DNA of 64,000 bases from a phage. The notes under the pieces were generated by a model. It ran no database searches, was not told the DNA's origin, and saw only the letters and a list, made by a program, of their open reading frames with translations. This document shows positions 8,482 to 56,885 of this stretch, one piece after another. Every line of letters begins with the position of its first letter. Within the stretch, counting starts at the first letter, position 1. The stretch is taken from assembly GCA_014685065.1 (NCBI GenBank), contig GCA_014685065.1_3930.1; one strand, given 5' to 3'. The position numbers were made by a program, and so were the translations under genes.

Positions 8482-9511
8482 TCATACACGGCTCCCAATT
8501 ATATTTCTTAAAAGAGAAATTATCTTTTGGATTTCTCTCTTGATACGCTATCCAGAAATGCTGTTCCATTAACTCTAATGGTGTTTTGGTAACAGTCTGT
8601 CCATCCCATGACACATAGGTATAAGAGTCTTTTTTAGCATAAAGTTCATAGATAGCATCAAGACACTCTTTGTAGGTCTCTTTACCATCTAAAGCATTCA
8701 TCACAGCTACTTTACCAGCCCCTTTTAGGCCGAAGTAGTTGTCTGCATTGTCTCCAGCAACAGCCTGATAACACAAGAATTTAAAACCTACACCAACTGT
8801 TTTTGCAGCTTTTGGTTTTGATTTGATAGGACAATCCCAGATATCACCAACATTATTATCAGCAATAAAAATTAGTGGTGATTTTTCATAAGTCATATCA
8901 ATACAATAAGTTCCTTCAGCTTGTCGAAGGTCTTTGTCAATACTCATAAGAGCAGCTTTCTTACCCATCTTTTCAGCTTTAGCAATTACGATTGAATCGG
9001 CTTCGAATCCTCCCTTTAAGAGTTTGAACTCTGGTCTTGACAGAAGATACTCACGACAAGCAACTAAGTGTGTTGGTGTGACAGCATCTTTACGGTTCCC
9101 TTGATATTGGTGCTCAAGACCTTTAATGTCTTTATGTTTATGCACACCTTTCTCTGTTAAATAGCCTACCCAAGTTCTTTCTTTACCAACAATCTTAAGC
9201 CATTCCTGAAGCACCTGTTGAGTAGCCATGATAGCTTCTTTTTCACTCTTAGCTTCTTTCCAAGTCTGTCTTTCCCATTCATCTTCATCAAATGTCAGGC
9301 CAAGTTCTTCCACAAGGATTCTCTGGTCTGCTAACCATCTTGCAGCATCTTTCGCATTATCAAATGGCTCAGATTCTTCTGCTGTGAGTTTATTGACGTA
9401 TTTATATTTTGATTTCTCAACTACACAAGCACCTTTATAGGCAATACTGTCAGAGTCAATAAAAACATGTGTAACTGAATCGGGAAGTTTTGTTAATGTG
9501 TACTTCTCCAT
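8471..9511 (-). CDS. 5'-3' exonuclease / flap endonuclease (T7 gp6-like)
   Basis: 346 aa; acidic motifs FIDSDSIAY, SIDKDLRQ and GDNADNYFG match the PIN-like 5'-3' exonuclease family. Confidence 0.8.
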   Translation of the reverse strand: MEKYTLTKLPDSVTHVFIDSDSIAYKGACVVEKSKYKYVNKLTAEESEPFDNAKDAARWLADQRILVEELGLTFDEDEWERQTWKEAKSEKEAIMATQQVLQEWLKIVGKERTWVGYLTEKGVHKHKDIKGLEHQYQGNRKDAVTPTHLVACREYLLSRPEFKLLKGGFEADSIVIAKAEKMGKKAALMSIDKDLRQAEGTYCIDMTYEKSPLIFIADNNVGDIWDCPIKSKPKAAKTVGVGFKFLCYQAVAGDNADNYFGLKGAGKVAVMNALDGKETYKECLDAIYELYAKKDSYTYVSWDGQTVTKTPLELMEQHFWIAYQERNPKDNFSFKKYNWEPCMNED

Positions 9512-9527
9512 TATGGCTCTCCATATG

Positions 9528-9556
9528 AAAAAGCCCCATACGGAGTACAGGGCTTT
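9528..9556 (-). terminator. weak terminator candidate between SSB and exonuclease genes
   Basis: GCCC...GGGGC hairpin followed on the minus strand by TTTTT. Confidence 0.3.
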
Positions 9557-9572
9557 AAAGTAACTTTAGAGA

Positions 9573-10430
9573 TTAATCTTCTGTATCGAAGTCTTCATCC
9601 TCTTCGTCATCTGGGTCTGGCAAATCTTCATCATCACCATCATCAGAATCATTCGAAGATTTATGGTCTGTTGCGTCTTCTTCAGTGATTTCACCGTTAT
9701 CTTCGACACCATCAAGACCAAGCATAGCCAGTTCATCTTCATCCAGTTCAGGTTCACCATTAGCACCGTTACCACCAGTGTAAGGTACAAGAGTATCAAT
9801 GATAAACTGTTCCTGAATAGGTTTAGTCAGAACATTGTTCTCAAAAGTGTAGAAGTGAGTAGAAAGAATCACACTACCAAAAGAACCGTTACCAACTGCA
9901 ATATCTGGATGAATTACATCATAGTTCTTATCATCTTCATGCTTATCAGATGCTTGAGCTTTGATTTTCTTCATCGGCTGTTTAACAGCTACACGTTTAC
10001 CGTTTACTTCTTCAATCAGCATTACAGGGAATGACTGTTTAGCTGTCCATACAGCACCATCTTTATAAGCTGCTGCACGACTTACTTTCAAGATGTAGTA
10101 AGTGTCTGCTTCAAAAGGTGGTTTGCAGCCAAACTTCTCTTCGAAGTCATCTGCATCAACTGCTTCAGTAGTAACTTTATCCCAACCCTCTGGGTTCTTC
10201 TTAGACTTAGTAAACTCTTTAAAGAGTTTGTTACCGTCTTCTGCCAGAATTGATACGCTGTAGTTACAATCTTTTCCTGGGAATTTCTTGTCAATAGACT
10301 TACCTTTTCCCGGACGTGGTGAAGTGTTCAGGTAATAAAACCAGACATCTTTCAGCAGGTAACGCAGAGTTTGACGTTCAGTACCGTTGTACTTCTCTAC
10401 CGGAGCTTTCATTTTAACAACTTTAGACAT
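9573..10430 (-). CDS. single-stranded DNA-binding protein (T7 gp2.5-like)
   Basis: 285 aa with a strongly acidic C-terminal tail ending DEEDEDFDTED; sits inside the replication module. Confidence 0.6.
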   Translation of the reverse strand: MSKVVKMKAPVEKYNGTERQTLRYLLKDVWFYYLNTSPRPGKGKSIDKKFPGKDCNYSVSILAEDGNKLFKEFTKSKKNPEGWDKVTTEAVDADDFEEKFGCKPPFEADTYYILKVSRAAAYKDGAVWTAKQSFPVMLIEEVNGKRVAVKQPMKKIKAQASDKHEDDKNYDVIHPDIAVGNGSFGSVILSTHFYTFENNVLTKPIQEQFIIDTLVPYTGGNGANGEPELDEDELAMLGLDGVEDNGEITEEDATDHKSSNDSDDGDDEDLPDPDDEEDEDFDTED

Positions 10431-10466
10431 TATTTAAACCTCTATCTCAATTTATGAAGAGTACCA

Positions 10467-10495
10467 ATTCTAATTTGTTGATACTCTATTGTCAA
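10467..10495 (-). promoter_or_regulatory. sigma70-like promoter for the SSB gene
   Basis: On the minus strand: TTGACA - 17 nt - TAGAAT, about 40 nt upstream of the SSB start. Confidence 0.5.
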
Positions 10496-10502
10496 ATACT
10501 AA

Positions 10503-10652
10503 TTACTGGAAGTTGTGCTTATCTTTAGAAGCTGCTTTACGTGCAGTTTTTCCAGTTCTTACACGTTTTTCTTCATAGTATTTTGCTGGTTTTCCAGCAG
10601 TGGCTTTTAAGGAATCCCCAAAAACTTTTTCAAATGCTTTAGAGTGTTTCAT
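10503..10652 (-). CDS. small basic protein (49 aa), absent from the ORF track
   Basis: ATG at rc of 10650-10652, stop TAA at 10503-10505; MKHSKAFEKVFGDSLKATAGKPAKYYEEKRVRTGKTARKAASKDKHNFQ. Lys/Arg-rich. Confidence 0.3.
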   Translation of the reverse strand: MKHSKAFEKVFGDSLKATAGKPAKYYEEKRVRTGKTARKAASKDKHNFQ

Positions 10653-10942
10653 GATATTCTCCGATATACTTGATATTCAAACACATTTTCTTTCATTATA
10701 AACAGCCAACCAATATTATGCTGAGGCAGTGTAATGATGACTGTAATCATACTTTGATGGAACTGCTGTTCTATTTCAACTTCTCCATCGCATTTCATGT
10801 GGAGCATTCTATAGAACCTATCAATCTTTGTCAAACACTCTTCATGAAATTTATTTAAACTTTTTTCTTCAAATAAGGGTGTGAACCCCCCTCTTTTATA
10901 GCTATCACTCAGTTTCGAACGGGCAGTCATCTGCATCCTCAC
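10649..10942 (-). CDS. hypothetical protein (uncertain)
   Basis: 97 aa ORF overlapping the 3' end of the primase-helicase gene; may be spurious. Confidence 0.3.
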   Translation of the reverse strand: MRMQMTARSKLSDSYKRGGFTPLFEEKSLNKFHEECLTKIDRFYRMLHMKCDGEVEIEQQFHQSMITVIITLPQHNIGWLFIMKENVFEYQVYRRIS

Positions 10943-12896
10943 TTAATACAGGTGGAATCGTTGAGCTTTGACGCTGCTCTTCAGTATAGACTTCACCAGT
11001 CTCACGGTCAAACACTTCATCCTCATAATGTGGCAAAGAGTCATCGTAATGGTCTTCAGCTTCACCAATACCAAACTGTTGGCGAATATTTTCTGCTGCA
11101 CCATCAATGTCAACTCCACAACCAGAGGCTTTAATGAGACGTCCTGTATCTGGATTGTACCAAGTATGACCAGCAATACCTGTTGACTTACCGTGACGAC
11201 GGCATTTAGTTAACTTGATTTTTGTCAAGTTTTTCTTAACAGGGTCTGGGTCAACCTTGTTACGCATTAACAGAATGTTGTTCATAGAAATCTGGAAATA
11301 CGCACCAGAACCTTTAATATCCTCTTCAGAGATATCTCCACCTTCGGAGTTAGCCTTCTGACCACCTGCACTCTTACGAACGTGACAGACGTTCACCTGT
11401 GCATACTGGTAGCGTTTGCAACGACGCAATAGCTCAGATAAAACTTCCTCTTCATCCGTATCTGAACGTGACAGAGCCAACGTAATAGGGTCAAGAATAA
11501 TAATCTTACAGTCTAAGCTGTTAACAAGATAGTCAACAAACTCCAGCAAGTTATCTTGGTCAATTGCCCCTTGATGGTCAACGATGTGGATACGACGACC
11601 TTTAGACAGTTCTGCGTGTGCTCCTTTTAATTCATCCCAATCCCGTTCATCATAAGGAATCTCAGAAATCTGCTTGCTCAGGTGGATTGCACAGAGCATC
11701 TCCATCAACTCTTCATAGGTATCTTCTACAGGAATTACACCGATATTATAATCAGTTTCTTTCCAAGCTGAATAAATCATCTCACGAGTGTAAGCTGACT
11801 TACCTACTGAAGATGGTGCTGCAATAGTTGTAATCTCACCTAAACCGTAACCACCATAAGTCAGCCTGTTCAAATCTCCGAAAGATTCTGGGAAAGGAAT
11901 CAATGGAATCTGACCACGATTCTTCATTGCCTCAAAACCATCTGCAAAGTTCTTGATACCAGCAGGACAGTAACGAGGTGCATTGTAGATACGCTGCTTA
12001 AATCCTTCCAGAACTGTGTCTTTCTCTTTATAGAACTTTGTCCACCACTCGTTAAGGTCTTTTACGCCTTCTGGATACTGGAATAAACGAACCTTCTCAA
12101 TAGGTAGGATACCAGCAGCCTCTTTAGTGGCTTTAGCACCTGCTTCATCGTTATCAAAGCACAAGTAAATCTCATCAAATGATGTAATGTACTGATAGTT
12201 ATCTTTGATAGACTTGATGTTTGCACCTGATGGAACAGATACGTGACAGTAATTCTTACGACGAGATTTATCCTTAATCGCAAGAGAAGTCATATAGATT
12301 GCTGTCGCACATTCCATCTCACCTTCCCAGATGAATAGACGGTTACCACCTTCTGGAGCAATCCATGAACCGAACATTGCCAGTTCACCTTTAATGTCTC
12401 CAACACCACCAGAAAAGTCTTTTAACTTACCTCGTAGGTGTTCTTTTGGATGGTCTTCTGGGTAACGGTGACGAACACGGTAGCCAACATGTTCTAGCTT
12501 ACCATCTTCATTACGTTTGTAAGTTGGATAGAAGTGCGCATCAATTTCACCGTCACTGTCAATATCAACCTTGATACCTAAGCGTTCAAGGACTTTTGCA
12601 GGAATCTTCCTATCTTTCAAGTCCATTGCTTCTAGGTTTTCTTTTACATCGTCTAAATCCATTCCACGGAAAGTACGGTTTTTATTGTCTGAACCAGTAG
12701 AATAAGTGCTCACGATTTGTCCTTTATCAAAATCCCACTCTGGGAAACCTTTGTTACAACTAAAGCAAGTCATTGAATAAGAATCATCGTCATGATGATA
12801 GATTGAACCAGCATCTGATGAACCACAACGTGGACATGCGCAATGACCAACAAACTGACCAGCCTCTTTCAATTTACGACCTTTAGACATTAGCAC
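10905..12896 (-). CDS. bifunctional DNA primase/helicase (T7 gp4-like)
   Basis: 663 aa; N-terminal zinc ribbon (CPRCGS...CFSCN), central primase-like region, C-terminal helicase with Walker A GLGEITTIAAPSSVGKS. Confidence 0.9.
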   Translation of the reverse strand: MLMSKGRKLKEAGQFVGHCACPRCGSSDAGSIYHHDDDSYSMTCFSCNKGFPEWDFDKGQIVSTYSTGSDNKNRTFRGMDLDDVKENLEAMDLKDRKIPAKVLERLGIKVDIDSDGEIDAHFYPTYKRNEDGKLEHVGYRVRHRYPEDHPKEHLRGKLKDFSGGVGDIKGELAMFGSWIAPEGGNRLFIWEGEMECATAIYMTSLAIKDKSRRKNYCHVSVPSGANIKSIKDNYQYITSFDEIYLCFDNDEAGAKATKEAAGILPIEKVRLFQYPEGVKDLNEWWTKFYKEKDTVLEGFKQRIYNAPRYCPAGIKNFADGFEAMKNRGQIPLIPFPESFGDLNRLTYGGYGLGEITTIAAPSSVGKSAYTREMIYSAWKETDYNIGVIPVEDTYEELMEMLCAIHLSKQISEIPYDERDWDELKGAHAELSKGRRIHIVDHQGAIDQDNLLEFVDYLVNSLDCKIIILDPITLALSRSDTDEEEVLSELLRRCKRYQYAQVNVCHVRKSAGGQKANSEGGDISEEDIKGSGAYFQISMNNILLMRNKVDPDPVKKNLTKIKLTKCRRHGKSTGIAGHTWYNPDTGRLIKASGCGVDIDGAAENIRQQFGIGEAEDHYDDSLPHYEDEVFDRETGEVYTEEQRQSSTIPPVLSEDADDCPFETE

Positions 12897-23119: not shown

Positions 23120-23479
23120 ATGAAACGTGAAAACATTATCCACTCTGAAAACTTTGCATTAGGCTTTTATGGTGTACCTACTCACCTTGAAAAGTATTAT
23201 GGTGTGAAGATTCTCTCCAATCTCATTATGGCTTACAAAGATGGTAAGATTAAGCATACTGAGAAGAAACGTGTCATGGGCTATATGGCTGTAGGTTCAG
23301 CAATCTCGAACATTAAGCTGGAAACAACTAGCAGCCAGATTGTGAAAGACCACTTCATCAAAGAGCTTTACCAGAATCTTGATGGTGTAGATGTTCAGGC
23401 TGTTTGGCTAGATGTTGATGGTCACAACTACACAAGTTTTGTCTTCAAAAACGATGACATTAAGTGCTTGTTCCCATAA
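23120..23479 (+). CDS. hypothetical protein
   Basis: 119 aa ORF. Confidence 0.5.
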   Translation: MKRENIIHSENFALGFYGVPTHLEKYYGVKILSNLIMAYKDGKIKHTEKKRVMGYMAVGSAISNIKLETTSSQIVKDHFIKELYQNLDGVDVQAVWLDVDGHNYTSFVFKNDDIKCLFP

Positions 23480-49732: not shown

Positions 49733-49808
49733 TGGAGAATCCGAAGGGACTCGAACCCTTATAAACCTGTTTTGCAGACAGGCACATAGCCATTTCTGTC
49801 ACGGATTC
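49733..49808 (-). tRNA. tRNA-Cys (anticodon GCA)
   Basis: Hand fold: acceptor GAATCCG/CGGATTC, T-arm GGGTTCGAGTCCC, anticodon loop CTGCAAA, CCA encoded. Confidence 0.6.
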
Positions 49809-49812
49809 AAAT

Positions 49813-49905
49813 TGGAGGAAGATACCAGACTTGAACTGGTACACCGATTTCTCAGCTACTGGCAGTTTAGCAAACTGCTCCCTTACCTTTTAGGGTTAAT
49901 CTTCC
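49813..49905 (-). tRNA. tRNA-Ser (anticodon GCT), class II
   Basis: 93 nt; acceptor GGAAGAT/ATCTTCC, anticodon stem GCAGT/ACTGC with loop TTGCTAA, long variable arm. Confidence 0.55.
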
Positions 49906-49906
49906 A

Positions 49907-50641
49907 TTATTTCTGTAATGCGTTCTTCATTTCTGGTGTTGCAATAGTGTCAATTACACCAGTTTTACAGGCATCATCAAACCAGTCTGGTAAGATACCT
50001 GCTAAGAACCCATTGATATTCGTTTTAAGGTACTCTGCAATAAGGGCAGCTTCTTCTTCAATCATCTGCACAACTTCATCTGCATAAGCTGTAATCTTTG
50101 AGATACCTTCATTAATCTTACTGACAGCTTGGTTAGCTAAATCAGAAACAGTATCAAGACCCTTGTCAATAGCGTCTTGTAAGTCACTTAATACATCGTT
50201 AACACTCTCTAGTGTACTGTTAATCGTATCAATAGCTTTTTGACCATATTCTGTAGCAACACCCATAATACCACTGAACGGTGTACAACCAACTTGTTCT
50301 CCTGCTGCACCCATAACATTGGAATATCCATTTGCTACCTGCATACGTGATGAAAACTCATCAATAGATTTTTGACCGTAGTCTGTCAGGGTCTTAGTAG
50401 TTGCTGTAGTGCTTGTAAGGCTTGTTGTAAAGCTGTTTAGAAGGACTGTTGTAAGTCCAGCAGCAACAAGTTTCTCCTGCATTGTAGGGTCTGTTACAGA
50501 ACTAATAGAGCTTACAAGTGATGTAGAAGCAGCTACGGTTCCACCGAGAACTGCTGCACCAGTAATAAGTGGGTTAGAAAACCCTTTACCGGTTTTTAAG
50601 AGATTAAAAATCTCCTTACCTTGTTCTGTCATCTCTTTCAT
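49907..50641 (-). CDS. hypothetical Ser/Thr/Ala-rich protein embedded in the tRNA array
   Basis: Track ORF trimmed to an internal ATG so it does not overlap the tRNA at 50660-50734; about 244 aa. Confidence 0.4.
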   Translation of the reverse strand: MKEMTEQGKEIFNLLKTGKGFSNPLITGAAVLGGTVAASTSLVSSISSVTDPTMQEKLVAAGLTTVLLNSFTTSLTSTTATTKTLTDYGQKSIDEFSSRMQVANGYSNVMGAAGEQVGCTPFSGIMGVATEYGQKAIDTINSTLESVNDVLSDLQDAIDKGLDTVSDLANQAVSKINEGISKITAYADEVVQMIEEEAALIAEYLKTNINGFLAGILPDWFDDACKTGVIDTIATPEMKNALQK

Positions 50642-50659
50642 TAAGCACCTTTGAAATTG

Positions 50660-50734
50660 GTAGTCCAGTGGGATTTGAACCCTCTTCTCATGTTTTTCAG
50701 ACACGCGCTTTAACCATATAAGCTACTTGGACTA
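50660..50734 (-). tRNA. tRNA-Phe (anticodon GAA)
   Basis: Acceptor TAGTCCA/TGGACTA, T-loop TTCAAAT, anticodon stem CGTGT/ACATG with loop CTGAAAA. Confidence 0.5.
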
Positions 50735-50739
50735 TAAAT

Positions 50740-50815
50740 TGGGGTGACCTACGGGATTTGAACCCGTATAGACCATGTTCACAGCATGGGTCATTGCCAT
50801 TTATGATAAGGCCAC
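50740..50815 (-). tRNA. tRNA-His (anticodon GTG)
   Basis: Anticodon stem CCATG/CATGG, loop CTGTGAA; T-arm ACGGGTTCAAATCCCGT. Confidence 0.6.
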
Positions 50816-50846
50816 ATTTAAGGACTCTCGTAAGAACCCTTAGAAG

Positions 50847-50922
50847 TGGCAGCGGCATAAGGATTTGAACCTTAATAGGACAGCTTCAGAGACTGTTGCA
50901 TTGCCAGTTATGCTATACCGCT
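50847..50922 (-). tRNA. tRNA-Gln (anticodon CTG)
   Basis: D-stem GCAT/ATGC, anticodon loop CTCTGAA, T-arm TAAGGTTCAAATCCTTA. Confidence 0.55.
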
Positions 50923-50927
50923 AAATT

Positions 50928-51006
50928 TGGTACTCCATATCGGATTCGAACCGATACATAACACAGATTTTAAGTCTGGCCTCTCTGCCAATTGGAGTAA
51001 TGGAGC
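50928..51006 (-). tRNA. tRNA with Leu anticodon TAA but short variable arm (class I-like)
   Basis: Acceptor GCTCCAT/ATGGAGT, discriminator A, D-loop AATTGGCA, anticodon loop CTTAAAA, T-arm ATCGGTTCGAATCCGAT; aligns with the tRNAs at 51751 and 52329. Confidence 0.45.
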
Positions 51007-51008
51007 AT

Positions 51009-51084
51009 TGGCGGGGGATGTTGGAATTGAACCAACTTCTTCGATTTCAAAGACCGAGGTTTTAACCTTGTAAACTAATCCCCT
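51009..51084 (-). tRNA. tRNA-Gln (anticodon TTG)
   Basis: Anticodon stem TCGGT/ATCGA, loop CTTTGAA; T-arm GTTGGTTCAATTCCAAC. Confidence 0.55.
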
Positions 51085-51092
51085 TTAAATCT

Positions 51093-51650
51093 TTACTTTC
51101 TCAGTGGATGAATAAAGAATGCCAACATAACTCTTTCCCTTGAGAATGCTCTTTCTTCTGGGACAACACTTTTTAGTTTCCATCCAATATAAATTCTCCA
51201 GTAAAACTGTTTACCAAAGACTTTAATTGATGGGATAAAAGCGAATAATCCCCAAGCATTACTGTTCCACATTAGGAGATAACCTGTCTGATTATCTTCA
51301 GGGTCAGAACTTACGTTGATATTACCTTTCCACTTAGTAACATCTTTTACATCTCTTCCTAATACATGGTAAGAGAAGTTATAAGCTTTGTTTCTCCAGA
51401 GCCATCCGACTCTCTGCATGTAGACACCCAGCTTACCAATCTTTCTAATCTTAGCCCATCGTTCGATATGACCTTCGTCACCATCAATTGGATTGTCATA
51501 TGTCTCCATCCATCTAAATCCGAAAGGTAAGTGGCCTTTCTTCTCACTGTAAAATGGAACTACGAAAGGTGCTAAGATAACTGCTAAGGTTGCTGCTAAT
51601 GGTTCTAGCAAAGCTAGGAAAATCCATGAAGCATATTTTAAATATCTCAT
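51093..51650 (-). CDS. hypothetical membrane protein embedded in the tRNA array
   Basis: 185 aa; N-terminal TM segment (WIFLALLEPLAATLAVILAPFVV), Trp-rich body. Confidence 0.5.
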   Translation of the reverse strand: MRYLKYASWIFLALLEPLAATLAVILAPFVVPFYSEKKGHLPFGFRWMETYDNPIDGDEGHIERWAKIRKIGKLGVYMQRVGWLWRNKAYNFSYHVLGRDVKDVTKWKGNINVSSDPEDNQTGYLLMWNSNAWGLFAFIPSIKVFGKQFYWRIYIGWKLKSVVPEERAFSRERVMLAFFIHPLRK

Positions 51651-51669
51651 CTAAATAGCCTCTTTAAAT

Positions 51670-51745
51670 TGGCGCAGGATAAGGGATTCGAACCCCTATT
51701 AACAGCTTCGTAGACTGTTGCTCTATCCATTTGAACTAATCCTGC
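51670..51745 (-). tRNA. tRNA-Arg (anticodon ACG)
   Basis: D-arm GTTC...GAGC, anticodon stem ACAGT/GCTGT with loop CTACGAA. Confidence 0.55.
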
Positions 51746-51750
51746 AAAAT

Positions 51751-51828
51751 TGGTGTTCCAAGACGGATTCGAACCGTCACTAGTACAAGGTTTGAGCTTG
51801 CATCCTCTGCCAATTGGGATACTGGAAC
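51751..51828 (-). tRNA. tRNA with Leu anticodon CAA but short variable arm (class I-like)
   Basis: Acceptor GTTCCAG/TTGGAAC, discriminator A, D-loop AATTGGCA, anticodon stem GCAAG/CTTGT with loop CTCAAAC. Confidence 0.45.
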
Positions 51829-51829
51829 A

Positions 51830-51904
51830 TGGTACTCACTAAAGGACTTGAACCTTTTTCTTCATCTTGTAAGGGTGGTGTTTTACCATATAAACTAAGC
51901 GAGT
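51830..51904 (-). tRNA. tRNA-Val (anticodon TAC), tentative
   Basis: Good acceptor, D-arm (GTTT/AAAC) and T-arm (AAAGGTTCAAGTCCTTT); anticodon stem is weak, loop read as CTTACAA. Confidence 0.4.
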
Positions 51905-51910
51905 ATGAAA

Positions 51911-51992
51911 GAGGTCTGAAGTTGTGCCGCTAACTCAACTCCGTGGAATTTGTTACGGTCTTCAGTTGACACCAGCGGTCTTTCACTTGACC
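51911..51992. other. tRNA-sized structured element without canonical T-loop
   Basis: Terminal inverted repeat GAGGTC / GACCTC about 80 nt apart with internal hairpins (CCGT...ACGG); no GTTCRA motif on either strand. Confidence 0.35.
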
Positions 51993-51999
51993 TCTGAAT

Positions 52000-52076
52000 T
52001 GGTGCTGCTCACAGGACTCGAACCTGCATTTCCATCCTTACAAGGGATGTGTAATAGCCAATTATACGAAAGCAGC
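52000..52076 (-). tRNA. tRNA-Thr (anticodon TGT)
   Basis: Perfect anticodon stem CATCC/GGATG, loop CTTGTAA. Confidence 0.6.
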
Positions 52077-52082
52077 ATTGTT

Positions 52083-52157
52083 TGGAGCATCCAGAGGGAA
52101 TCGAACCCTCAACCTCAGTTTGGAAGACTGTAATTTTCCCGTTTAAACTATGGATGC
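52083..52157 (-). tRNA. tRNA-Gly (anticodon TCC)
   Basis: Acceptor GCATCCA/TGGATGC, anticodon loop CTTCCAA, T-arm GAGGGTTCGATTCCCTC. Confidence 0.55.
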
Positions 52158-52163
52158 ACTAAT

Positions 52164-52240
52164 TGGTGGAGAAGCAGGGAATTGAACCCTGTACTTAAGT
52201 TTGCAAAACTTATGTTTTAACCATGTAAACTACATCCCCA
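52164..52240 (-). tRNA. tRNA-Ala (anticodon TGC)
   Basis: D-stem GTTT/AAAC, anticodon stem TAAGT/ACTTA with loop TTTGCAA. Confidence 0.6.
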
Positions 52241-52245
52241 ATGTT

Positions 52246-52321
52246 TGGTACAGGTGGAGGGAATTGAACCCATCGTCTTACTGATTAAGAGTCAGCCGCA
52301 TAACCATTTTGCTACACCTGC
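52246..52321 (-). tRNA. tRNA-Lys (anticodon CTT)
   Basis: Anticodon loop CTCTTAA; paralogous in sequence to the Lys(TTT) tRNA at 53966. Confidence 0.5.
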
Positions 52322-52328
52322 ATTAATT

Positions 52329-52405
52329 TGGTACACCTAGAGAGATTCGAACTCACACTGAGCAGATTCTAAGTCTGCTGCCTCTACCAATTGGGCTATA
52401 GGTGC
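52329..52405 (-). tRNA. tRNA with Leu anticodon TAG but short variable arm (class I-like)
   Basis: Acceptor GCACCTA/TAGGTGT, discriminator A, D-loop AATTGGTA, perfect anticodon stem GCAGA/TCTGC with loop CTTAGAA, variable region only about 5 nt. Confidence 0.5.
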
Positions 52406-52663
52406 ATTAAATCTTTTTAGAGAACTTCTAAGAACCTAAGCAACAAGGTTCCACAACAAGCTGTAATAACCTTAGAAGCCCTCTAAAAAGACCTAATTTG
52501 GTCTTTGCATAGTCTTGTTTAATCCGGTGACTAGAACCTTTGGAGAGCTTGATATTATCTCTTCTCCGTGACACCTACTAGGTGCTTTACTGTGCGTGTA
52601 CGACAATACACGAGGGATACCAAAGCAACATCCGAATGAAGCTTGGCTTTAAATCTTATTAGG
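52406..52663 (-). ncRNA. structured non-coding spacer within the tRNA array (candidate small stable RNA)
   Basis: No ORF and no tRNA; several hairpins (CTTCTAAG...CTTAGAAG 8 bp; AGACC-taattt-GGTCT; CGTGTA-cgacaa-TACACG). Confidence 0.3.
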
Positions 52664-52751
52664 CGGTAAGTAAAGGAGTCGAACCCTCACCGTATCTCTA
52701 CAGTGGCAACTGTTTTCAAGACAGTTTGGCTACCATTAGCCGCTACCTACC
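52664..52751 (-). tRNA. tRNA-Ser (anticodon TGA), class II
   Basis: 88 nt; perfect anticodon stem ACTGT/ACAGT with loop CTTGAAA; long variable arm; CCA not encoded. Confidence 0.55.
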
Positions 52752-52764
52752 CCTAATAAGACTT

Positions 52765-52847
52765 TGGCATGGGACGGAGGAGTTGAACCACTTTGAAACG
52801 GTTTTGGAGGCCGTTGCTCATGCCTTAGAGTCTTAACATCGTCCCAC
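52765..52847 (-). tRNA. tRNA-Trp (anticodon CCA), atypical
   Basis: 83 nt; acceptor GTGGGAC/GTCCCAT, anticodon region ACGGC-CTCCAAA-ACCGT; T-stem imperfect. Confidence 0.4.
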
Positions 52848-52989
52848 ACTATAATTCGAAGCTTACCGTATTTTCACAACACTGTAAAGCCCCTTCTCAG
52901 ATTATTTACATGTTCTGGAAAACATGAGATACAGACCACCTCCTTACACGGAGACCCGATAAGGTCGTCTAAGCAATCTGCTAACTATT

Positions 52990-53066
52990 TGGCACACCCT
53001 ACAGGATTCGAACCTGTAACTAACGATTTAGAAGACCGTTGCTCTATCCAATTGAACTAAGGGTGC
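52990..53066 (-). tRNA. tRNA-Arg (anticodon TCT)
   Basis: Anticodon stem ACGGT/ATCGT, loop CTTCTAA; T-arm ACAGGTTCGAATCCTGT. Confidence 0.55.
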
Positions 53067-53313
53067 ATTAATCTTTAAAGACTCTCTTAGAAAGCCCTTA
53101 AAGATGCCCACCTTATTAATCATACCGTGGGCGAGTACGCCAAATTCTTTGATGAGGGATTGGAAGACCTCACTGGTGTTTAGCCTATCAAGCTACTGCC
53201 AGAAAAACATTGTCGTTTGCATTTATTTTAAATTTGCAAAATAGACGCTACGCAACGAAAACTAAGGTTACTATAAAGTGGTCACATCTCAATGTCAACA
53301 ACTTTATTGAAAT

Positions 53314-53389
53314 TGGTACTGTGAGAAGGATTCGAACCTTCTGCCTTTCGGTTATCAGCCGAATGCACATCCATATGTGCTTTCACAGC
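53314..53389 (-). tRNA. tRNA-Ile (anticodon GAT)
   Basis: Perfect anticodon stem TTCGG/CCGAA, loop CTGATAA. Confidence 0.6.
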
Positions 53390-53868
53390 ATTGTTACCCC
53401 TTCGTGTACCTCTCTGTGGCAATTTGCACACAGTAATACACACTTATCAACTTCAGACTTCATTACCTCTATAGAGAAGTGTTTTTGTCCTACTGTGAAG
53501 TCCTTTGTATTAGGGTCTAAGTGGTGAAACTCTAAAGCCTTTATGCACTTATTGTATCCACAAATTGAGCAACAACCACCTTTGTAATCAACTAAAACCC
53601 TCTTAAGTTTGTCACGAGACTTTTTAACGTGTTGTGACTTCGCTTTCTTTTCTTCATCGGGGTTTTTGTATTGTTTCAGAATACCATTTGAAATACATTC
53701 ATCACAATACTTTCTTGATTTTGGTGTTTGTTTTCCACATGAATGACAAGAGCCTTCTTGTCTTCTTTTTGGATGACTCTTGTTGTTTACCCTTGCAGCA
53801 CAAGAGCGTGAACAATATTTTCCGCCTTTAACGGCTTTGTTGTCACAATCTTTATTAGCACAAAACAT
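53383..53868 (-). CDS. HNH homing endonuclease
   Basis: Trimmed to ATG 53866-53868 (RBS GGTGA) so it does not overlap tRNAs; Cys-rich N-terminal region; C-terminal HNH motif EFHHLDPNTKD...CANCHREVH. Confidence 0.7.
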   Translation of the reverse strand: MFCANKDCDNKAVKGGKYCSRSCAARVNNKSHPKRRQEGSCHSCGKQTPKSRKYCDECISNGILKQYKNPDEEKKAKSQHVKKSRDKLKRVLVDYKGGCCSICGYNKCIKALEFHHLDPNTKDFTVGQKHFSIEVMKSEVDKCVLLCANCHREVHEGVTML

Positions 53869-53884
53869 AATATCACCAACGAAT

Positions 53885-53961
53885 TGGAGGTTCAGATGGG
53901 AATCGAACCCACATTCATAGGGCTTATGAGACCCCTGCATTACCTTATCTGCGACTGAACC
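53885..53961 (-). tRNA. tRNA-Met (anticodon CAT)
   Basis: Acceptor GGTTCAG/CTGAACC perfect; anticodon stem GGGGT/GCCCT, loop CTCATAA. Confidence 0.55.
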
Positions 53962-53965
53962 ATAT

Positions 53966-54041
53966 TGGTAGAAGTGGAGGGATTCGAACCCATCGCCTGT
54001 CAGATTAAAAGTCTGCCGCATCACCATTCTGCTACACTTCC
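53966..54041 (-). tRNA. tRNA-Lys (anticodon TTT)
   Basis: Anticodon loop CTTTTAA; T-arm ATGGGTTCGAATCCCTC. Confidence 0.5.
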
Positions 54042-54045
54042 ATTA

Positions 54046-54181
54046 AAATTATCTTTGTAGATAAGCTATCCAGACTTGCTTAAGGTCTGTAGCGATGTGC
54101 CTTGTTGGGTTTAAATCTAGAATTTACCCTTTCACTCTTTGTGGTCGCATACTCACAGGTAAGCTTAATAACTTATCTACA
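54046..54181. repeat. 19-bp perfect inverted repeat flanking a ~98-nt spacer
   Basis: aattatctttgtagataag (54046-54064) is the exact reverse complement of cttatctacaaagataatt (54163-54181); inner CAGAC...GTCTG hairpin. Confidence 0.55.
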
Positions 54182-54241
54182 AAGATAATTACCAGACCGT
54201 TGTTTATCATCTTAAGTGCTACCATTACACCAACTCGACAT

Positions 54242-54266
54242 CTGCCGAGTGAAGGAATCGAACCTT
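54242..54266 (-). other. tRNA 3'-half-like fragment (T-arm plus acceptor 3' strand only)
   Basis: Canonical GAAGGTTCGATTCCTTC T-arm followed by ACTCGGC-A, but no complementary 5' acceptor strand found within 120 nt. Confidence 0.3.
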
Positions 54267-54497
54267 CGCCTTTTCTTTACCGGAGAAATAGATTGTTTAA
54301 GTTTTGCTGTAAACGGTCTTCTGTAAATTTGTTGAGCCAGACCAAGTTTTAAATTTTCAAAATTAAATTGGCTTGAAATTTCATACATTCTTGCTGTATT
54401 TGGTCTTCTGCTCCTTTAAAGAATACTCGTAAGAACCCTTTAAGGGAGGGGCTAAATAGCCCTCTCAAAACATCATCTTGAAATACTTATTATAATT

Positions 54498-54574
54498 TGG
54501 CGGTTACGAAGGGATTTGAACCCTCATCATCTCCCGTGACAGGGGAGTATTTTAACCAGTTAAACTACATAACC
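54498..54574 (-). tRNA. tRNA-Asp (anticodon GTC)
   Basis: Perfect anticodon stem CTCCC/GGGAG, loop CTGTCAC; D-stem GTTT/AAAT. Confidence 0.6.
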
Positions 54575-54580
54575 TTTATT

Positions 54581-54668
54581 TGGTGTGCCGTGTAGGAGTC
54601 GAACCTACCGAGTCTCAATGACAAGGGATTTACAGTCCCCACCGCTACCATCTACGGGATAACGACAC
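54581..54668 (-). tRNA. tRNA-Tyr (anticodon GTA), class II
   Basis: 88 nt; anticodon stem GGGGA/TCCCT, loop CTGTAAA; long variable arm. Confidence 0.5.
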
Positions 54669-54737
54669 ATTTAATTTCTATTCAGGCTAAGGACTTGCAC
54701 CTTACAAATCGGTGAGCAATCGCTTCTCTCCTAAATT

Positions 54738-54814
54738 TGGCGGTTAGTCAGGGATTCGAACCCTGTGCCATTCGCTTAACAGGCGACCGCACATACCTTA
54801 TGTGCTTCCTAACC
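54738..54814 (-). tRNA. tRNA-Asn (anticodon GTT)
   Basis: Anticodon loop CTGTTAA; T-arm CAGGGTTCGAATCCCTG. Confidence 0.5.
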
Positions 54815-54891
54815 TTAATACATTGCCAGACCGTGTTTTTTCTTTTATCCGCAAAAAGTATTTTGTTGCTGAATACGGTCTTCTGCAAAAT

Positions 54892-54968
54892 TGGAGGCGG
54901 GTGCAGGAGTCGAACCTGCCGATACCATGCTAATGAGACATGTGAGACGCCCTTTCTCTATACCCGCA
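54892..54968 (-). tRNA. tRNA with anticodon CAT (Met or Ile2), tentative
   Basis: Anticodon stem CATGT/GCATG, loop CTCATTA (position 37 is T, unusual); 1-72 mismatch in acceptor. Confidence 0.4.
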
Positions 54969-55059
54969 ATTCTTAATGACCAGACCAAATCTCTTCTTTG
55001 TCCGATTTACCTTCAGATGAATAAGATTAAGTTTGCTGTAATTGGTCTTCTGTCAAAAC

Positions 55060-55137
55060 TGGCGTTCCAGAAGGGATTTGAACCCTCAAATATCCACTTT
55101 GAAAGAGTGGTGACTTTACCATTTTGTCTACTGGAAC
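55060..55137 (-). tRNA. tRNA-Glu (anticodon TTC)
   Basis: Perfect acceptor GTTCCAG/CTGGAAC and anticodon stem CCACT/AGTGG, loop CTTTCAA. Confidence 0.6.
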
Positions 55138-55144
55138 ATTAATT

Positions 55145-55224
55145 TGGTCTCCGTTGAAGGATTTGAACCCTCGACCCCTTGCTCCCAAAGCAAGTGCTGC
55201 TAAACCAAACTGAGCTAAACGGAG
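55145..55224 (-). tRNA. tRNA-Pro (anticodon TGG)
   Basis: Perfect acceptor CTCCGTT/AACGGAG and anticodon stem CTTGC/GCAAG, loop TTTGGGA with G37. Confidence 0.6.
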
Positions 55225-55342
55225 ATAAACTTTTCAAACTCTATGTAACCACTTTAACATTATTTTTTAGTGGTTGTCAAGAACTTTTTTAAAATATTTT
55301 TCAGTATCTTAGAAAAGCTCTCATTTCGTTTCTATGTAGAAC

Positions 55343-55389: not shown

Positions 55390-56805
55390 TTACCAGATGT
55401 AACGGTCAATCATTACTGCTTTGAGCATTACGCTGATTGGGTCAAACTTCTCACCACCAAGCAGAGCTTTTAAAGTGGCTGGAGAGAACCCTGATACCAT
55501 TGCTACACCATTATCCTTAACAGATACTTCGCAAGTACCATTACGGTTTGCTAAGTACCAGAATACCAGTTGTGGCATTTTGTATCCAGCTTTTTTGTAC
55601 TTACTACGAATCGCTTCAAAGTTTGTACGACCATTAGCTCCATCAACCTGATTGAACTCCATATCAGAGAAGATAATAAGCTTACTTGGCATATCTTTCT
55701 GAGTCAAGTTGTTTCTCTTACCTGTTTCAAGAATGCGGTCAAAAGCTGCTTGTAAGTTAGTTGAGCCATATTCAACGTGTCGCATCACCTGACGATGACG
55801 GTTTCGTAAATCACCACTCAGTTCGATGAAGTGAGGGTTTGTCGAATAAACCATCAACTCATTCTTAAAGCAACCTGTATTGCGTTCTGCTACATACAAG
55901 GCAAGTGATACACCAATATCCAGAGCAGTAATGGAGCCAAAATTCACCCAAGACATTGAACTTGATACATCAGACATACACAAGATGTTTTCACCTTCTG
56001 CCATCCAGTTTGGTAGTGCTTTCCACTGCTCATTAGCAACATCTGCATTACCATACTTGACAGATTTAATCACATCGTATGGGTAAACAGCACCAGCGTT
56101 AATCTTAGTCTCACCTTTTGATAAGGACTCGATGTAAGCTTTGTAACGCTCTCCATCTTTACGGTTAAACAGTTTTTGGTAACGTGCAGCAGCAAGTGAA
56201 GGAATCTTACTGTAGTCAATCTTACCAAACTCATTAGCAGAGATTTTTTGCTCAACTGTATCAGATAGTGCAGACAACAGTGTGCGATACTCTTTCTCAC
56301 TCAAGTTTGCAAACTTGCAGAAACGTTTTACAAACTGTTTGTGACGTGGTTTTACTCGTGGTAACCACTTAGCTGCTAAACCTGCTGTTGCAGGGTCTAG
56401 TAAAGCTGCTTCTAAATGTTTGAAGGCATCTGTCTCGAAACGAGTACCTACAAAGATTTTGAAGTCATCAAAGCGACCAAGCTCTGCAATCTTATCCATA
56501 ATGCGAAGAACCTGCGTAGGCTCTAAAACTTTATCTTCAATCGCTTGAAGTAAAACAGTTCGGAAAGCTTTACGCTCACCCATACCTTCTCGTACATCTC
56601 GCATATGCAGTAAAATACGAACTGCAACATCAACATCCTCATGCAAAGCTTTGTAGAACAAGTCTGGTAAGATTTCTACATTGCTACGGCTGGAACCAGC
56701 AGCTTTGTAAAAGTCCACAAGAGCAGACATTGATGAAGTATGGTTTACAGCACCATTTTCAGTTCGACCTGCATGAAGGTGCGCATGTTTAAATAATTCG
56801 CTCAT
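55390..56805 (-). CDS. von Willebrand factor A (vWA) domain protein, possibly Ro60/TROVE-like
   Basis: 471 aa; C-terminal region has a MIDAS-like DxSxS motif (MSDVSSSMS) and later LIIFSDMEF; N-terminal half is helical. Adjacent to the tRNA array. Confidence 0.5.
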   Translation of the reverse strand: MSELFKHAHLHAGRTENGAVNHTSSMSALVDFYKAAGSSRSNVEILPDLFYKALHEDVDVAVRILLHMRDVREGMGERKAFRTVLLQAIEDKVLEPTQVLRIMDKIAELGRFDDFKIFVGTRFETDAFKHLEAALLDPATAGLAAKWLPRVKPRHKQFVKRFCKFANLSEKEYRTLLSALSDTVEQKISANEFGKIDYSKIPSLAAARYQKLFNRKDGERYKAYIESLSKGETKINAGAVYPYDVIKSVKYGNADVANEQWKALPNWMAEGENILCMSDVSSSMSWVNFGSITALDIGVSLALYVAERNTGCFKNELMVYSTNPHFIELSGDLRNRHRQVMRHVEYGSTNLQAAFDRILETGKRNNLTQKDMPSKLIIFSDMEFNQVDGANGRTNFEAIRSKYKKAGYKMPQLVFWYLANRNGTCEVSVKDNGVAMVSGFSPATLKALLGGEKFDPISVMLKAVMIDRYIW

Positions 56806-56885
56806 ATTTTACTCTCTTCTCTCATTGTTGTTTGATGTGACAGACTTTAGAGCAACTTTATAGAGTCTGTCAACACCTTTTAAAA

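Follow-up and report, generated by a model that had tools for sequence, protein, structure and literature searches.

The question raised by this locus is what four paired elements between the transfer RNA (tRNA) genes of a phage encode. The window, i.e., the whole stretch of 64,000 nucleotides (nt) that was analysed (contig GCA_014685065.1_3930.1), comes from a Felix O1-like phage with 94–98% identity to Escherichia phages SP22 and JH2 and to many Felixounavirus records. ARAGORN finds in it 26 tRNA genes at 49733–55224, all on the minus strand, and spacers of this cluster house all four elements, here called E1 to E4. Each of them occupies its inter-tRNA spacer to within 4–9 nt, its outer helix pairs nucleotides that adjoin the flanking tRNAs, and in nearly all GenBank records it is either unannotated or covered by 'hypothetical protein' calls. 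The elements are a real, strongly conserved family of structured RNAs, and they are probably Y-RNA-like partners of a Ro60-like protein encoded next to the cluster. An earlier note, made from the letters of this DNA, had seen four pairs of complementary arms among the tRNA genes, each with a conserved box, and had offered a processing signal, a small RNA or a miniature mobile element as explanation; among these three, it is the small RNA that the results support.

The four elements share one fold on the tRNA-sense strand

All four arm pairs are present, at coordinates within 0–5 nt of those in the earlier note (Table 1). The box that was said always to accompany the downstream arm, TTGCTGTA-NNN-GGTCTTCTG, is exact in three of the four copies, while E3 has TTGCTGAA. 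The elements had, however, been read on the wrong strand: the functional strand is the minus, or tRNA-sense, strand. The RNA is assigned tRNA sense because the G.U pairs of orthologues, exemplified by AGGCC/GGUCU and AGACUGU/ACGGUCU in Citrobacter phage Moogle, pair only on this strand and would be A.C mismatches on the opposite one.

Read in this direction, the common layout is 5'-outer helix (4 nt)-AGA-AGACC(N2-3)-(U/A)U(A/U)CAGCAA-variable interior-(N2-3)GGUCU-G-outer helix-3'. It folds into an outer helix of 4 base pairs (bp), an AGA/G internal loop, an inner stem of 7–8 bp and a single-stranded box, so that the 'TTGCTGTA' box is, on the RNA strand, the single-stranded UACAGCAA motif immediately 3' of the 5' arm. 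The closing helix of the 5' and 3' ends, the single-stranded (U/A)U(A/U)CAGCAA box on its 5' strand and the 3' end ...CUG will together be called the handle. The outer helix covaries between the copies, being UUAC/GUAA in E1, GAGC/GCUC in E2, UUGC/GCAA in E3 and UGAC/GUCA in E4. The inner stem is AGACCGUU/AACGGUCU in E1, AGACCAA/UUGGUCU in E2 and E4, and AGACCGU/ACGGUCU in E3, and the box is UACAGCAA in E1, AUACAGCAA in E2, AUUCAGCAA in E3 and UUACAGCAA in E4. All four finish with GGUCUG, and their cores measure 55 nt (E3), 68 nt (E4), 69 nt (E2) and 127 nt (E1); the interior of E2 has a hairpin UUUCAAGCC...UUUUGAAA, and that of E1 is tRNA-like. The minus strand, the covarying outer helix, the single-stranded box and the interior of E1 are four features beyond those of the earlier note, which also made no link to the adjacent Ro60-like gene.

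A descriptor consisting of AGACC...GGTCT with at least two further pairs and a 4-bp outer helix is satisfied by exactly four sites on the two strands of the 64-kb window, and these are E1 to E4. The exact sequence GGTCTTCTG has five occurrences in the 64 kb, and four of these are confined to 740 nt.

That pairing rather than sequence is kept, and hence that a structure is under selection, had been proposed from the four copies, together with a formal covariation analysis. The proposal survives such tests. Orthologous spacers were taken by sequence similarity from phages Moogle, Mordin, KPS64 and SUSP2 and from five Felix-like contigs of IMG/VR, and the resulting 22 orthologous or paralogous copies of E2 to E4 were chosen by homology and not by pairing. 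In this set the 11 proposed pairs make up 242 cells, every one of them a standard pair; five of the 11 pairs change on both sides, and none of 500 shuffles reaches the observed score. When the partner is shifted by one column, pairing falls to 35–46%. To take one case, the outer helix of E3 goes from UUGC/GCAA to UUAC/GUAA in orthologues, that is, from G-C to A-U. The interiors are far less constrained than the arms; E4 has two unrelated interiors in different Felix subgroups, with the arms kept.

The family has apparently not been described before: no description of a handle RNA family was found in the literature on DUF2828, Ro-like proteins or the box sequence, and at gathering thresholds Rfam finds tRNAs only in the window. 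Three other interpretations of the same stretch were rejected. A plus-strand promoter TTGCTG...TAAATT has a spacer of 14 nt, and the structure is at the RNA level on the other strand. The AGA/G loop is not a kink-turn, there being no G.A tandem in its non-bulged strand. A 58-aa open reading frame (ORF) at 54212–54388 on the minus strand, which covers parts of both E1 and E2 and which some records list as a 'hypothetical protein', is not a gene, because its orthologues have non-triplet insertions and deletions and keep the RNA pairing.

E1 carries a tRNA-like interior

Inside its handle, E1 has a variable arm, a T arm, an acceptor-like stem closed by a loop and a D arm, in this order (Table 1). 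When 13 long forms of distant phages are folded jointly by RNAalifold, they have the closing stem and the T arm in common, with many compensatory changes and an invariant GUUCGA T-loop. The acceptor-like hairpin differs wholly between Felix-like, Susp/KPS64-like and Moogle-like phages, and each of these three versions is fully paired; the variable-arm-like hairpin is kept in Felix-like and Susp-like phages and replaced in Moogle.

The earlier note would have given up its family if the elements were parts of unrecognised tRNA genes. The T, acceptor and D modules of a tRNA are indeed present in E1, but E1 itself is no tRNA gene. ARAGORN reports none between 54041 and 54498, nor at E3 or E4, and the Rfam tRNA match to E1 is partial, its 22 bits being below the cut-off of 29; an anticodon arm is missing, and the acceptor-like stem is loop-closed.

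The handle is linked to a family of Ro60-like genes

Upstream of the tRNA cluster, on the same strand, lies a gene for a protein of 471 aa (Table 1), here proposed as the partner of the elements. The protein has the Pfam domains DUF2828 and DUF7788 and falls in PHROG 850, 'RNA-binding protein'. A sequence search of the PDB with it returns nothing, and its relation to Ro60 is visible only at the level of the fold. Its AlphaFold2 model, made with 35 homologues, has a predicted local distance difference test (pLDDT) score of 86 and a predicted template-modelling (TM) score, pTM, of 0.86. The 12 best Foldseek matches of this model in the PDB are all Ro60 structures, aligned over their full length with TM values up to 0.65; they include Thermus phage phiLo (9kop and 9l5y), Xenopus (2i91, 1yvr and 1yvp), Deinococcus (2nvo) and three cryo-electron-microscopy complexes of Ro60 (9nfa, 9nep and 9nf8). 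Judged by these full-length matches of its predicted model, the 471-aa protein folds like Ro60, with a ring of HEAT repeats plus a vWA domain.

Of 50,697 deposited phage genomes, 710 encode a homologue, and the hosts of these phages include Escherichia, Salmonella, Vibrio, Aeromonas, Campylobacter, Listeria, Staphylococcus, Enterococcus, Bacillus and Mycobacterium; in the Mycobacterium phages the protein is annotated as 'Ro-like RNA binding protein'. In the Felixounavirus Bas63, the homologue gp130 lies directly upstream of the tRNAs, was described as structurally Ro60-like and was reported to counter the Ppl defence, and the authors guessed that some of the 'tRNA genes' could be Y RNAs, none of which they identified (2024 preprint, PMC11482910).

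The flanks of distant homologues of this gene hold the same stem plus box, in Yersinia phage P778, Mycobacterium phage Lolly9, Cronobacter phage S13, Campylobacter phage F368 and Aeromonas phage 4_4572. P778 has three copies, with stems such as GGACUGU/ACAGUCC, and Lolly9 has three directly after the gene, the middle one with T, acceptor-like and D arms. In 4_4572 the handle stands on both sides of the gene, and in F368 ahead of it.

The strength of this linkage follows from two covariance models. Model R1, built from 34 short elements and searched over 782 kb, gives 98 matches at E<=1, with the gene strand holding all those at E<0.1. For 75 IMG/VR loci whose homologues are 38–47% identical, from which the training elements were partly drawn, R1 has 60 matches at E<0.01 in 45 loci. 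All of these are on the gene strand, and 55 of the 60 are within 1 kb of the gene, a zone that makes up 27% of the space searched. Model R2, from 30 elements with no Felix-like sequence among them, was built to remove the circularity. R2 recovers E4, E3 and E2 in the window, with E-values of 1.9e-7, 2.9e-7 and 6.2e-6, and finds three copies in every other Ounavirinae genome examined. In 80 loci from bacterial assemblies, which had no part in model building, it gives 71 matches at E<=0.1 in 48 loci, 70 of them on the gene strand and mostly less than 500 nt upstream of the gene; 99.4% of the stem cells in these matches pair, in an alignment that is itself fitted to the model. When the two locus sets are taken together, 130 of 131 significant matches have a fixed strand relative to the gene family, and this strand-locked linkage at sub-kilobase distance spans proteins that are 33–47% identical and phages of very different types.

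In at least 17 divergent loci the ...CUG end of an element is followed at once by the Shine-Dalgarno sequence, and then the ATG, of the Ro60-like gene itself. These copies are very short, 33–66 nt, and their position suggests the layout of an autoregulatory translational operator.

One handle with interchangeable interiors

Besides long forms of the E1 type, many loci have RNAs of 109–124 nt framed as tRNAs, with a normal acceptor stem (some with an encoded CCA), a D arm and a T arm, in which the place of the anticodon arm is taken by a hairpin with (U/C)(A/U)ACAGCAA directly after it. They are circular permutations of the long form: the handle stem is now closed by a loop, and the box still follows it. 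They cluster upstream of DUF2828 genes, and Cronobacter phage S13 annotates them as tRNA-Ser or tRNA-OTHER. That the handle is kept despite the circular permutation fits a unit of protein recognition. At least three further recurrent modules occur inside the same handle besides the tRNA mimic, one example being GAACCUUUCUGGAGGGGAAAGCAAAAACUCGCC.

In many long forms the loop that closes the acceptor-like stem starts with N-CCA (GCCA or ACCA), like an encoded tRNA 3' end; the corresponding loop of E1 is AGAU.

Comparison with known RNA families

Ro60-Y RNA particles are a classic and still poorly understood system of RNA surveillance. Metazoan Y RNAs are transcripts of RNA polymerase III with La binding, and their terminal bulged helix docks on the Ro60 ring. 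Like them, the phage RNAs are small, with a terminal bulged helix and a variable loop, and the Felix-like copies also have the succession helix, internal loop, helix. The motif, in contrast, is GGUCCGA in the metazoan RNAs and UUACAGCAA here, and neither RNA nor protein has homology at the sequence level.

The likeness is closer to the bacterial YrlA RNAs (RF02553). Both kinds of RNA are encoded beside a protein of Ro60 fold, and both are closed by a stem of their 5' and 3' ends, the 5' strand carrying a conserved single-stranded motif. The order of T arm, closed acceptor-like stem and D arm in YrlA (Chen et al. 2014, PMC4201824) is also that of E1, and there is one tRNA-mimic RNA per genome. 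As with YrlA and the shorter YrlB, a locus has several RNAs, long and short, and E2 to E4 lack the tRNA-like domain as YrlB does. The differences are that the partner is here a DUF2828+DUF7788 protein and not a Pfam TROVE protein, and that the phage RNAs are embedded in a tRNA operon. Long forms related to E1 match RF02553 with 25–39 bits (E from 2e-6 to 0.02), through their tRNA-like part only and with mismatches in the lower stem, and no phage element reaches the cut-off of 69 bits. The DUF2828 lineage was probably outside the study of Chen et al., because only genomes with TROVE-domain proteins were searched there (PMC4201824).

A phage precedent exists in Thermus phage phiLo, where phiRo60 binds the adjacent small RNAs Yrl1 and Yrl2 (PMC12135203). 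Here, too, a Ro60-fold protein of a phage has small RNAs next to it, and phiRo60 (9kop) is the top structural match of the 471-aa protein. The phiLo RNAs differ in having been identified by the canonical CGAA motif, and the phiLo protein, 17% identical to the one considered here, is called a TROVE-domain structure by its depositors.

The short forms have a nearly identical design in an unexpected place, the Class I RNAs of Dictyostelium (RF01414). There, too, a covarying closing stem that starts with G (6 bp in Dictyostelium, 7–8 bp here) is followed directly after the 5' arm by a box (C)CUUACAGCAA, then by an A-rich variable interior, and the 3' end is ...CUG. D. discoideum sequences read GUUGAC-CUU-ACAGCAA...GUCAAC-UG (PMC7919456). 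Class I RNAs are 42–65 nt long, compared with cores of 55–69 nt for E2 to E4 and 127 nt for E1, the ends being here taken from the sequence. The unpaired 11-nt Class I motif by the 5' arm, CCUUACAGCAA, is matched at 7–9 of its 11 positions in the phage copies, namely at nine by UUACAGCAA in E4, at eight by UACAGCAA in E1 and E2, and at seven by UUCAGCAA in E3. Among 4227 Rfam families, RF01414 is the only one that repeatedly matches the short forms, with 12 matches of 20–31 bits, all exactly on elements. Two of these are E3 and E4 (24.0 and 19.7 bits), and the other ten, of 23–31 bits with a best score of 30.7, are distributed over seven other loci, again on the elements and nowhere else. The reported E-values are multiplied by the 4227 families; for this one pre-stated family they are about 2e-5 to 2e-3 each. 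Because all scores, including those of a scan of 15 loci, are below the cut-off of 41.5 bits, the elements are not filed as members of Class I.

The settings differ as well: Class I RNAs come from separate eukaryotic genes with a Dictyostelium upstream sequence element (DUSE) promoter about 60 nt upstream, whereas the phage RNAs lie in an operon with sigma-70-like promoters. The Class I RNAs were reported as unique to Dictyostelia and as being of unknown mechanism (Kjellin et al. 2021, PMC7919456). About 5% of the D. discoideum proteome contained no conserved DUF2828 peptide motif, which at such coverage is uninformative; the handful of papers mentioning DUF2828 deal with plants, apart from one tardigrade genome study. 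That the phage handle RNAs and the Class I RNAs are one family, in which the stem, the UUACAGCAA box and the CUG end dock DUF2828-type Ro60-like proteins, is put forward as a tentative idea, with the odds somewhat against it. If true, Class I RNAs would be the 'Y RNAs' of a second Ro-like lineage that spans phages and eukaryotes, and an abundant class of eukaryotic RNA, with a function open since 2004, would obtain a mechanism and a protein partner. It would follow, too, that interchangeable cargos can be borne by one protein handle, be it a tRNA mimic, a whole tRNA frame or another module.

T4 provides a further comparison. Its stable RNAs C and D (species 1 and 2) are small and stable, have no known function and lie in the T4 tRNA cluster. 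They resemble the present RNAs in being co-encoded with phage tRNAs, and rnaC has a T-arm-like 3' part. They were rejected as relatives: the handle is absent from them, neither R1 nor R2 has a match in the T4 tRNA cluster, and the stretch of T4 examined contains no DUF2828 gene.

Interpretation and alternatives

The reading that best joins these observations, with a probability of about two thirds, is that E1 to E4 are Y-RNA-like partner RNAs of a second lineage of Ro60-like proteins, co-transcribed with the tRNAs. The minus strand would be transcribed from the promoter-like site TTGACA-18-TAAAGT at 55280–55251 together with the tRNAs, and the spacers would be cut out as small RNAs by RNase P and the enzymes that act on tRNA 3' ends. 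Since each element fills its spacer to within 4–9 nt, it is probably the tRNA-processing enzymes that define the ends of these RNAs. The handle would be the docking site on the Ro60-like ring protein encoded immediately upstream, to which the RNAs presumably bind directly. The variable interior would then act as 'cargo' that recruits, tethers or mimics something else: in E1 a tRNA mimic of YrlA type, directed toward something that recognises tRNA shape, and in E2 to E4 a short A-rich or hairpin segment. Candidates for the output are RNA surveillance, protection or repair of tRNA, a decoy for tRNA-directed defences, and the reported counter-defence against Ppl.

Several observations weigh against this reading. 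The motif GNCGAA(N0-1)G, or CGAA near the 5' end (PMC4201824), by which known bacterial and phage Y RNAs are recognised, is absent, its position in the phage copies being taken by the box (U/A)U(A/U)CAGCAA (UUACAGCAA), and E1 has no match to RF02553 even at E<=10. Neither the 471-aa protein nor five distant homologues match Pfam TROVE (PF05731). About 40% of the homologous loci are without a short-form match, though several of them have long forms, and no handle is present in the leader of the window's own Ro60-like gene. The linkage could in part be to tRNA genes instead of the protein, since the gene often adjoins tRNA clusters. The seeds of the models were picked by a pairing descriptor, which biases upward the pair counts on model-based alignments. 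Finally, we infer the formation of a ribonucleoprotein particle from linkage, and the expression and processing of the RNAs likewise.

If the elements were instead cis-acting structures of the tRNA precursor, which direct or time the action of RNase P, RNase E or RNase III, or lend the precursor stability, and are without function once excised, it would be natural that they fill the spacers almost exactly, that their outer helices pair tRNA-adjacent nucleotides, and that folding finds other spacers of the cluster likewise structured. The handle is, however, also found without an adjacent tRNA, as in the three Lolly9 copies and in the mRNA-leader copies that end at the ribosome-binding site, and it is absent from the T4 tRNA cluster; a 7-nt single-stranded box kept from Campylobacter to Mycobacterium phages would be unexpected for a mere cleavage scaffold. 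This explanation is therefore held to be unlikely, and the processing signal of the earlier note to be unlikely as the whole story. It is likewise improbable that the RNAs act in trans with the handle bound by a host protein or another phage protein, e.g., one of RRM type, so that the gene linkage would reflect a shared pathway only. Such a binder would agree with the absence of the known Ro60-binding CGAA motif from the handle, and the only direct binder demonstrated for the look-alike Class I RNAs is the RRM protein Rnp1A (PMC7919456). Against it stands the strand-locked linkage across so divergent proteins, and direct recognition is the simplest explanation for the copies that abut the ribosome-binding site of the gene itself.

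Two further explanations have very low probabilities. Degenerate or unconventional tRNA genes, i.e., permuted tRNAs or pseudogenes, are suggested by the modules of E1, by the N-CCA that follows the acceptor 3' strand in related long forms, and by the true tRNA frames that carry the handle in other phages. Yet no element has an anticodon arm, E2 to E4 are without tRNA features, the acceptor loop AGAU of E1 lacks CCA, and ARAGORN and Rfam stay silent or below cut-off, as described above. The miniature mobile element of the earlier note, or a relic of one, would have spread CAGAAGACC / GGTCTGG terminal inverted repeats among the tRNA spacers, and the several copies with inverted-repeat ends and unrelated interiors, as well as homing-endonuclease-like ORFs within the same cluster, have that appearance. 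It is nevertheless the least credible account: the arms differ between copies and remain complementary, G.U pairs included; the copies are syntenic across genera; there is no sign of target-site duplications; all but one of the 131 significant matches keep the same orientation toward one gene family; and the conserved box is internal to the repeats, away from their tips.

The E1 to E4 family is best seen, then, as a variation on the Ro60-Y RNA theme, with Dictyostelium Class I as an unexpected lead. The second Ro60-fold lineage (DUF2828/DUF7788, PHROG 850) gains a candidate RNA partner with a simple recognition motif, and there are concrete candidate RNAs for the anti-Ppl counter-defence reported of the Bas63 homologue. 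The proposal also accounts for spacers that are unannotated, or that bear spurious calls of a 'hypothetical protein', in Felix O1-like genomes used for phage therapy and typing, of which there are hundreds.

Table 1. Coordinates of the elements, their parts and related features, in the window unless a locus (L) is given
Feature	Position	Strand	Basis or remark
E1, long form	54189..54326	minus	Fold, descriptor scan, orthologue alignment, RNAalifold of 13 long forms
E1 variable-arm-like hairpin UUUCU-CCGGUAA-AGAAA	54272..54288	minus	Minimum-free-energy fold
E1 T-arm mimic GAAGG-UUCGAUU-CCUUC	54251..54267	minus	Fold
E1 acceptor-like hairpin ACUCGGC-AGAU-GUCGAGU, 7 bp, loop-closed	54233..54250	minus	Fold, orthologues
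E1 D-arm mimic GUGU-AAUGGUA-GCAC (after UG), with D-loop GG	54216..54230	minus	Fold, orthologues
E2, short form	54334..54413	minus	Fold, R2 32.0 bits (E 6.2e-6), orthologues
E3, short form	54823..54888	minus	Fold, R2 37.0 bits (E 2.9e-7), RF01414 24.0 bits
E4, short form	54977..55055	minus	Fold, R2 37.7 bits (E 1.9e-7), RF01414 19.7 bits
E1 arms AGACCGTT / AACGGTCT	54194-54201 / 54312-54319	plus	
E2 arms AGACCAA / TTGGTCT	54339-54345 / 54400-54406	plus	
E3 arms AGACCGT / ACGGTCT	54828-54834 / 54875-54881	plus	
E4 arms AGACCAA / TTGGTCT	54982-54988 / 55042-55048	plus	
Element X, 150-nt RNA, closing stem ~24 bp	54043..54191, between E1 and tRNA-Lys	minus	Fold z-score -6.6
Gene for 471-aa Ro60-like protein, proposed partner	55390..56805, 165 nt upstream of tRNA cluster	minus	Pfam, PHROGs, AlphaFold2/Foldseek
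Promoter-like site TTGACA-18-TAAAGT ahead of tRNA-Pro	55251..55280	minus	Consensus match only
Promoter-like site, same hexamers TTGACA-18-TAAAGT, ahead of Ro60-like gene	56844..56873	minus	Consensus match only
Leader copies (others exist)	L014 3954-3987, L019 1764-1796, L022 2859-2891, L035 3950-3986, L055 3906-3946, L062 3907-3944, L069 2150-2190, L017 3946-3987, L002 4908-4958		
tRNA-framed RNAs	L005 4895-5018, 5025-5140; L002 2494-2613; L127 1710-1823, 1911-2027, 2409-2526, 2756-2874; also L130, L118, L148, L157		
N-CCA loops of long forms (approximate)	L003 9466-9489, L005 5221-5245, L074 5860-5882, L059 5580-5600, L057 5478-5499		
Other cargo modules	L014 3276-3371, L015 3133-3233, L019 149-281, L022 1265-1374; L055, L062, L069, L083; L079, L080		

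Other features of the cluster and of related loci

The promoter-like site ahead of tRNA-Pro is likely, by its match to the consensus, to be the start of the tRNA and small-RNA transcript. Element X, next to E1, has an internal mini hairpin CAGAC-CUUAAGCAA-GUCUG at 54071–54089 with a loop similar to the box, and the Moogle version of this hairpin is CAAACC-CUUUAGCAA-GGUUUG. Covariation between Felix-like and Moogle-like phages is seen in the closing stem as well as in the mini hairpin, and element X is possibly a fifth, divergent member of the family.

A hairpin of the type CUUAAAGGGUUCUUACGAG(A/U)(G/A)U(C/U)CUUUAAAG is repeated on the minus strand in several tRNA spacers, at about 54413–54445, 50815–50845, 53068–53105 and 52440–52495, and Yersinia phage P778 has one that resembles it; a role as a signal for processing or termination is possible. 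Between tRNA-Thr and tRNA-Val, the spacer (51905–51999, minus) folds into a long-range hairpin with a z-score of -2.9 and contains CUGAAGACCGUAACA, similar to the 5' arm of the handle, without the box and without the CUG end. Between tRNA-Met and tRNA-Ile, at 53383–53870 on the minus strand, lies a Cys/His-rich ORF of about 161 aa, starting from MFCANKDC..., which resembles a homing endonuclease of HNH type and has no Pfam match at E<=0.01.

Elsewhere in the window, R2 gives a handle-like match UGGCUG...UUCAGCAA...CAGCCAG at 23286–23338 on the plus strand (18.9 bits, E 0.019), inside a 119-aa ORF (23120–23479) and on the strand opposite to the tRNA cluster; this match may be due to chance. In locus L124, a contig of a metagenome-assembled genome, a 'freshwater-1' RNA (RF02979, 82.7 bits, above cut-off) at 1007–1068 lies about 270 nt upstream of the DUF2828 gene and adjoins two handle elements. 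The record of Moogle (NC_027293, locus L003) places all tRNAs at 8582–12341 on the strand opposite to that given by ARAGORN and Rfam, which is probably an error of annotation.

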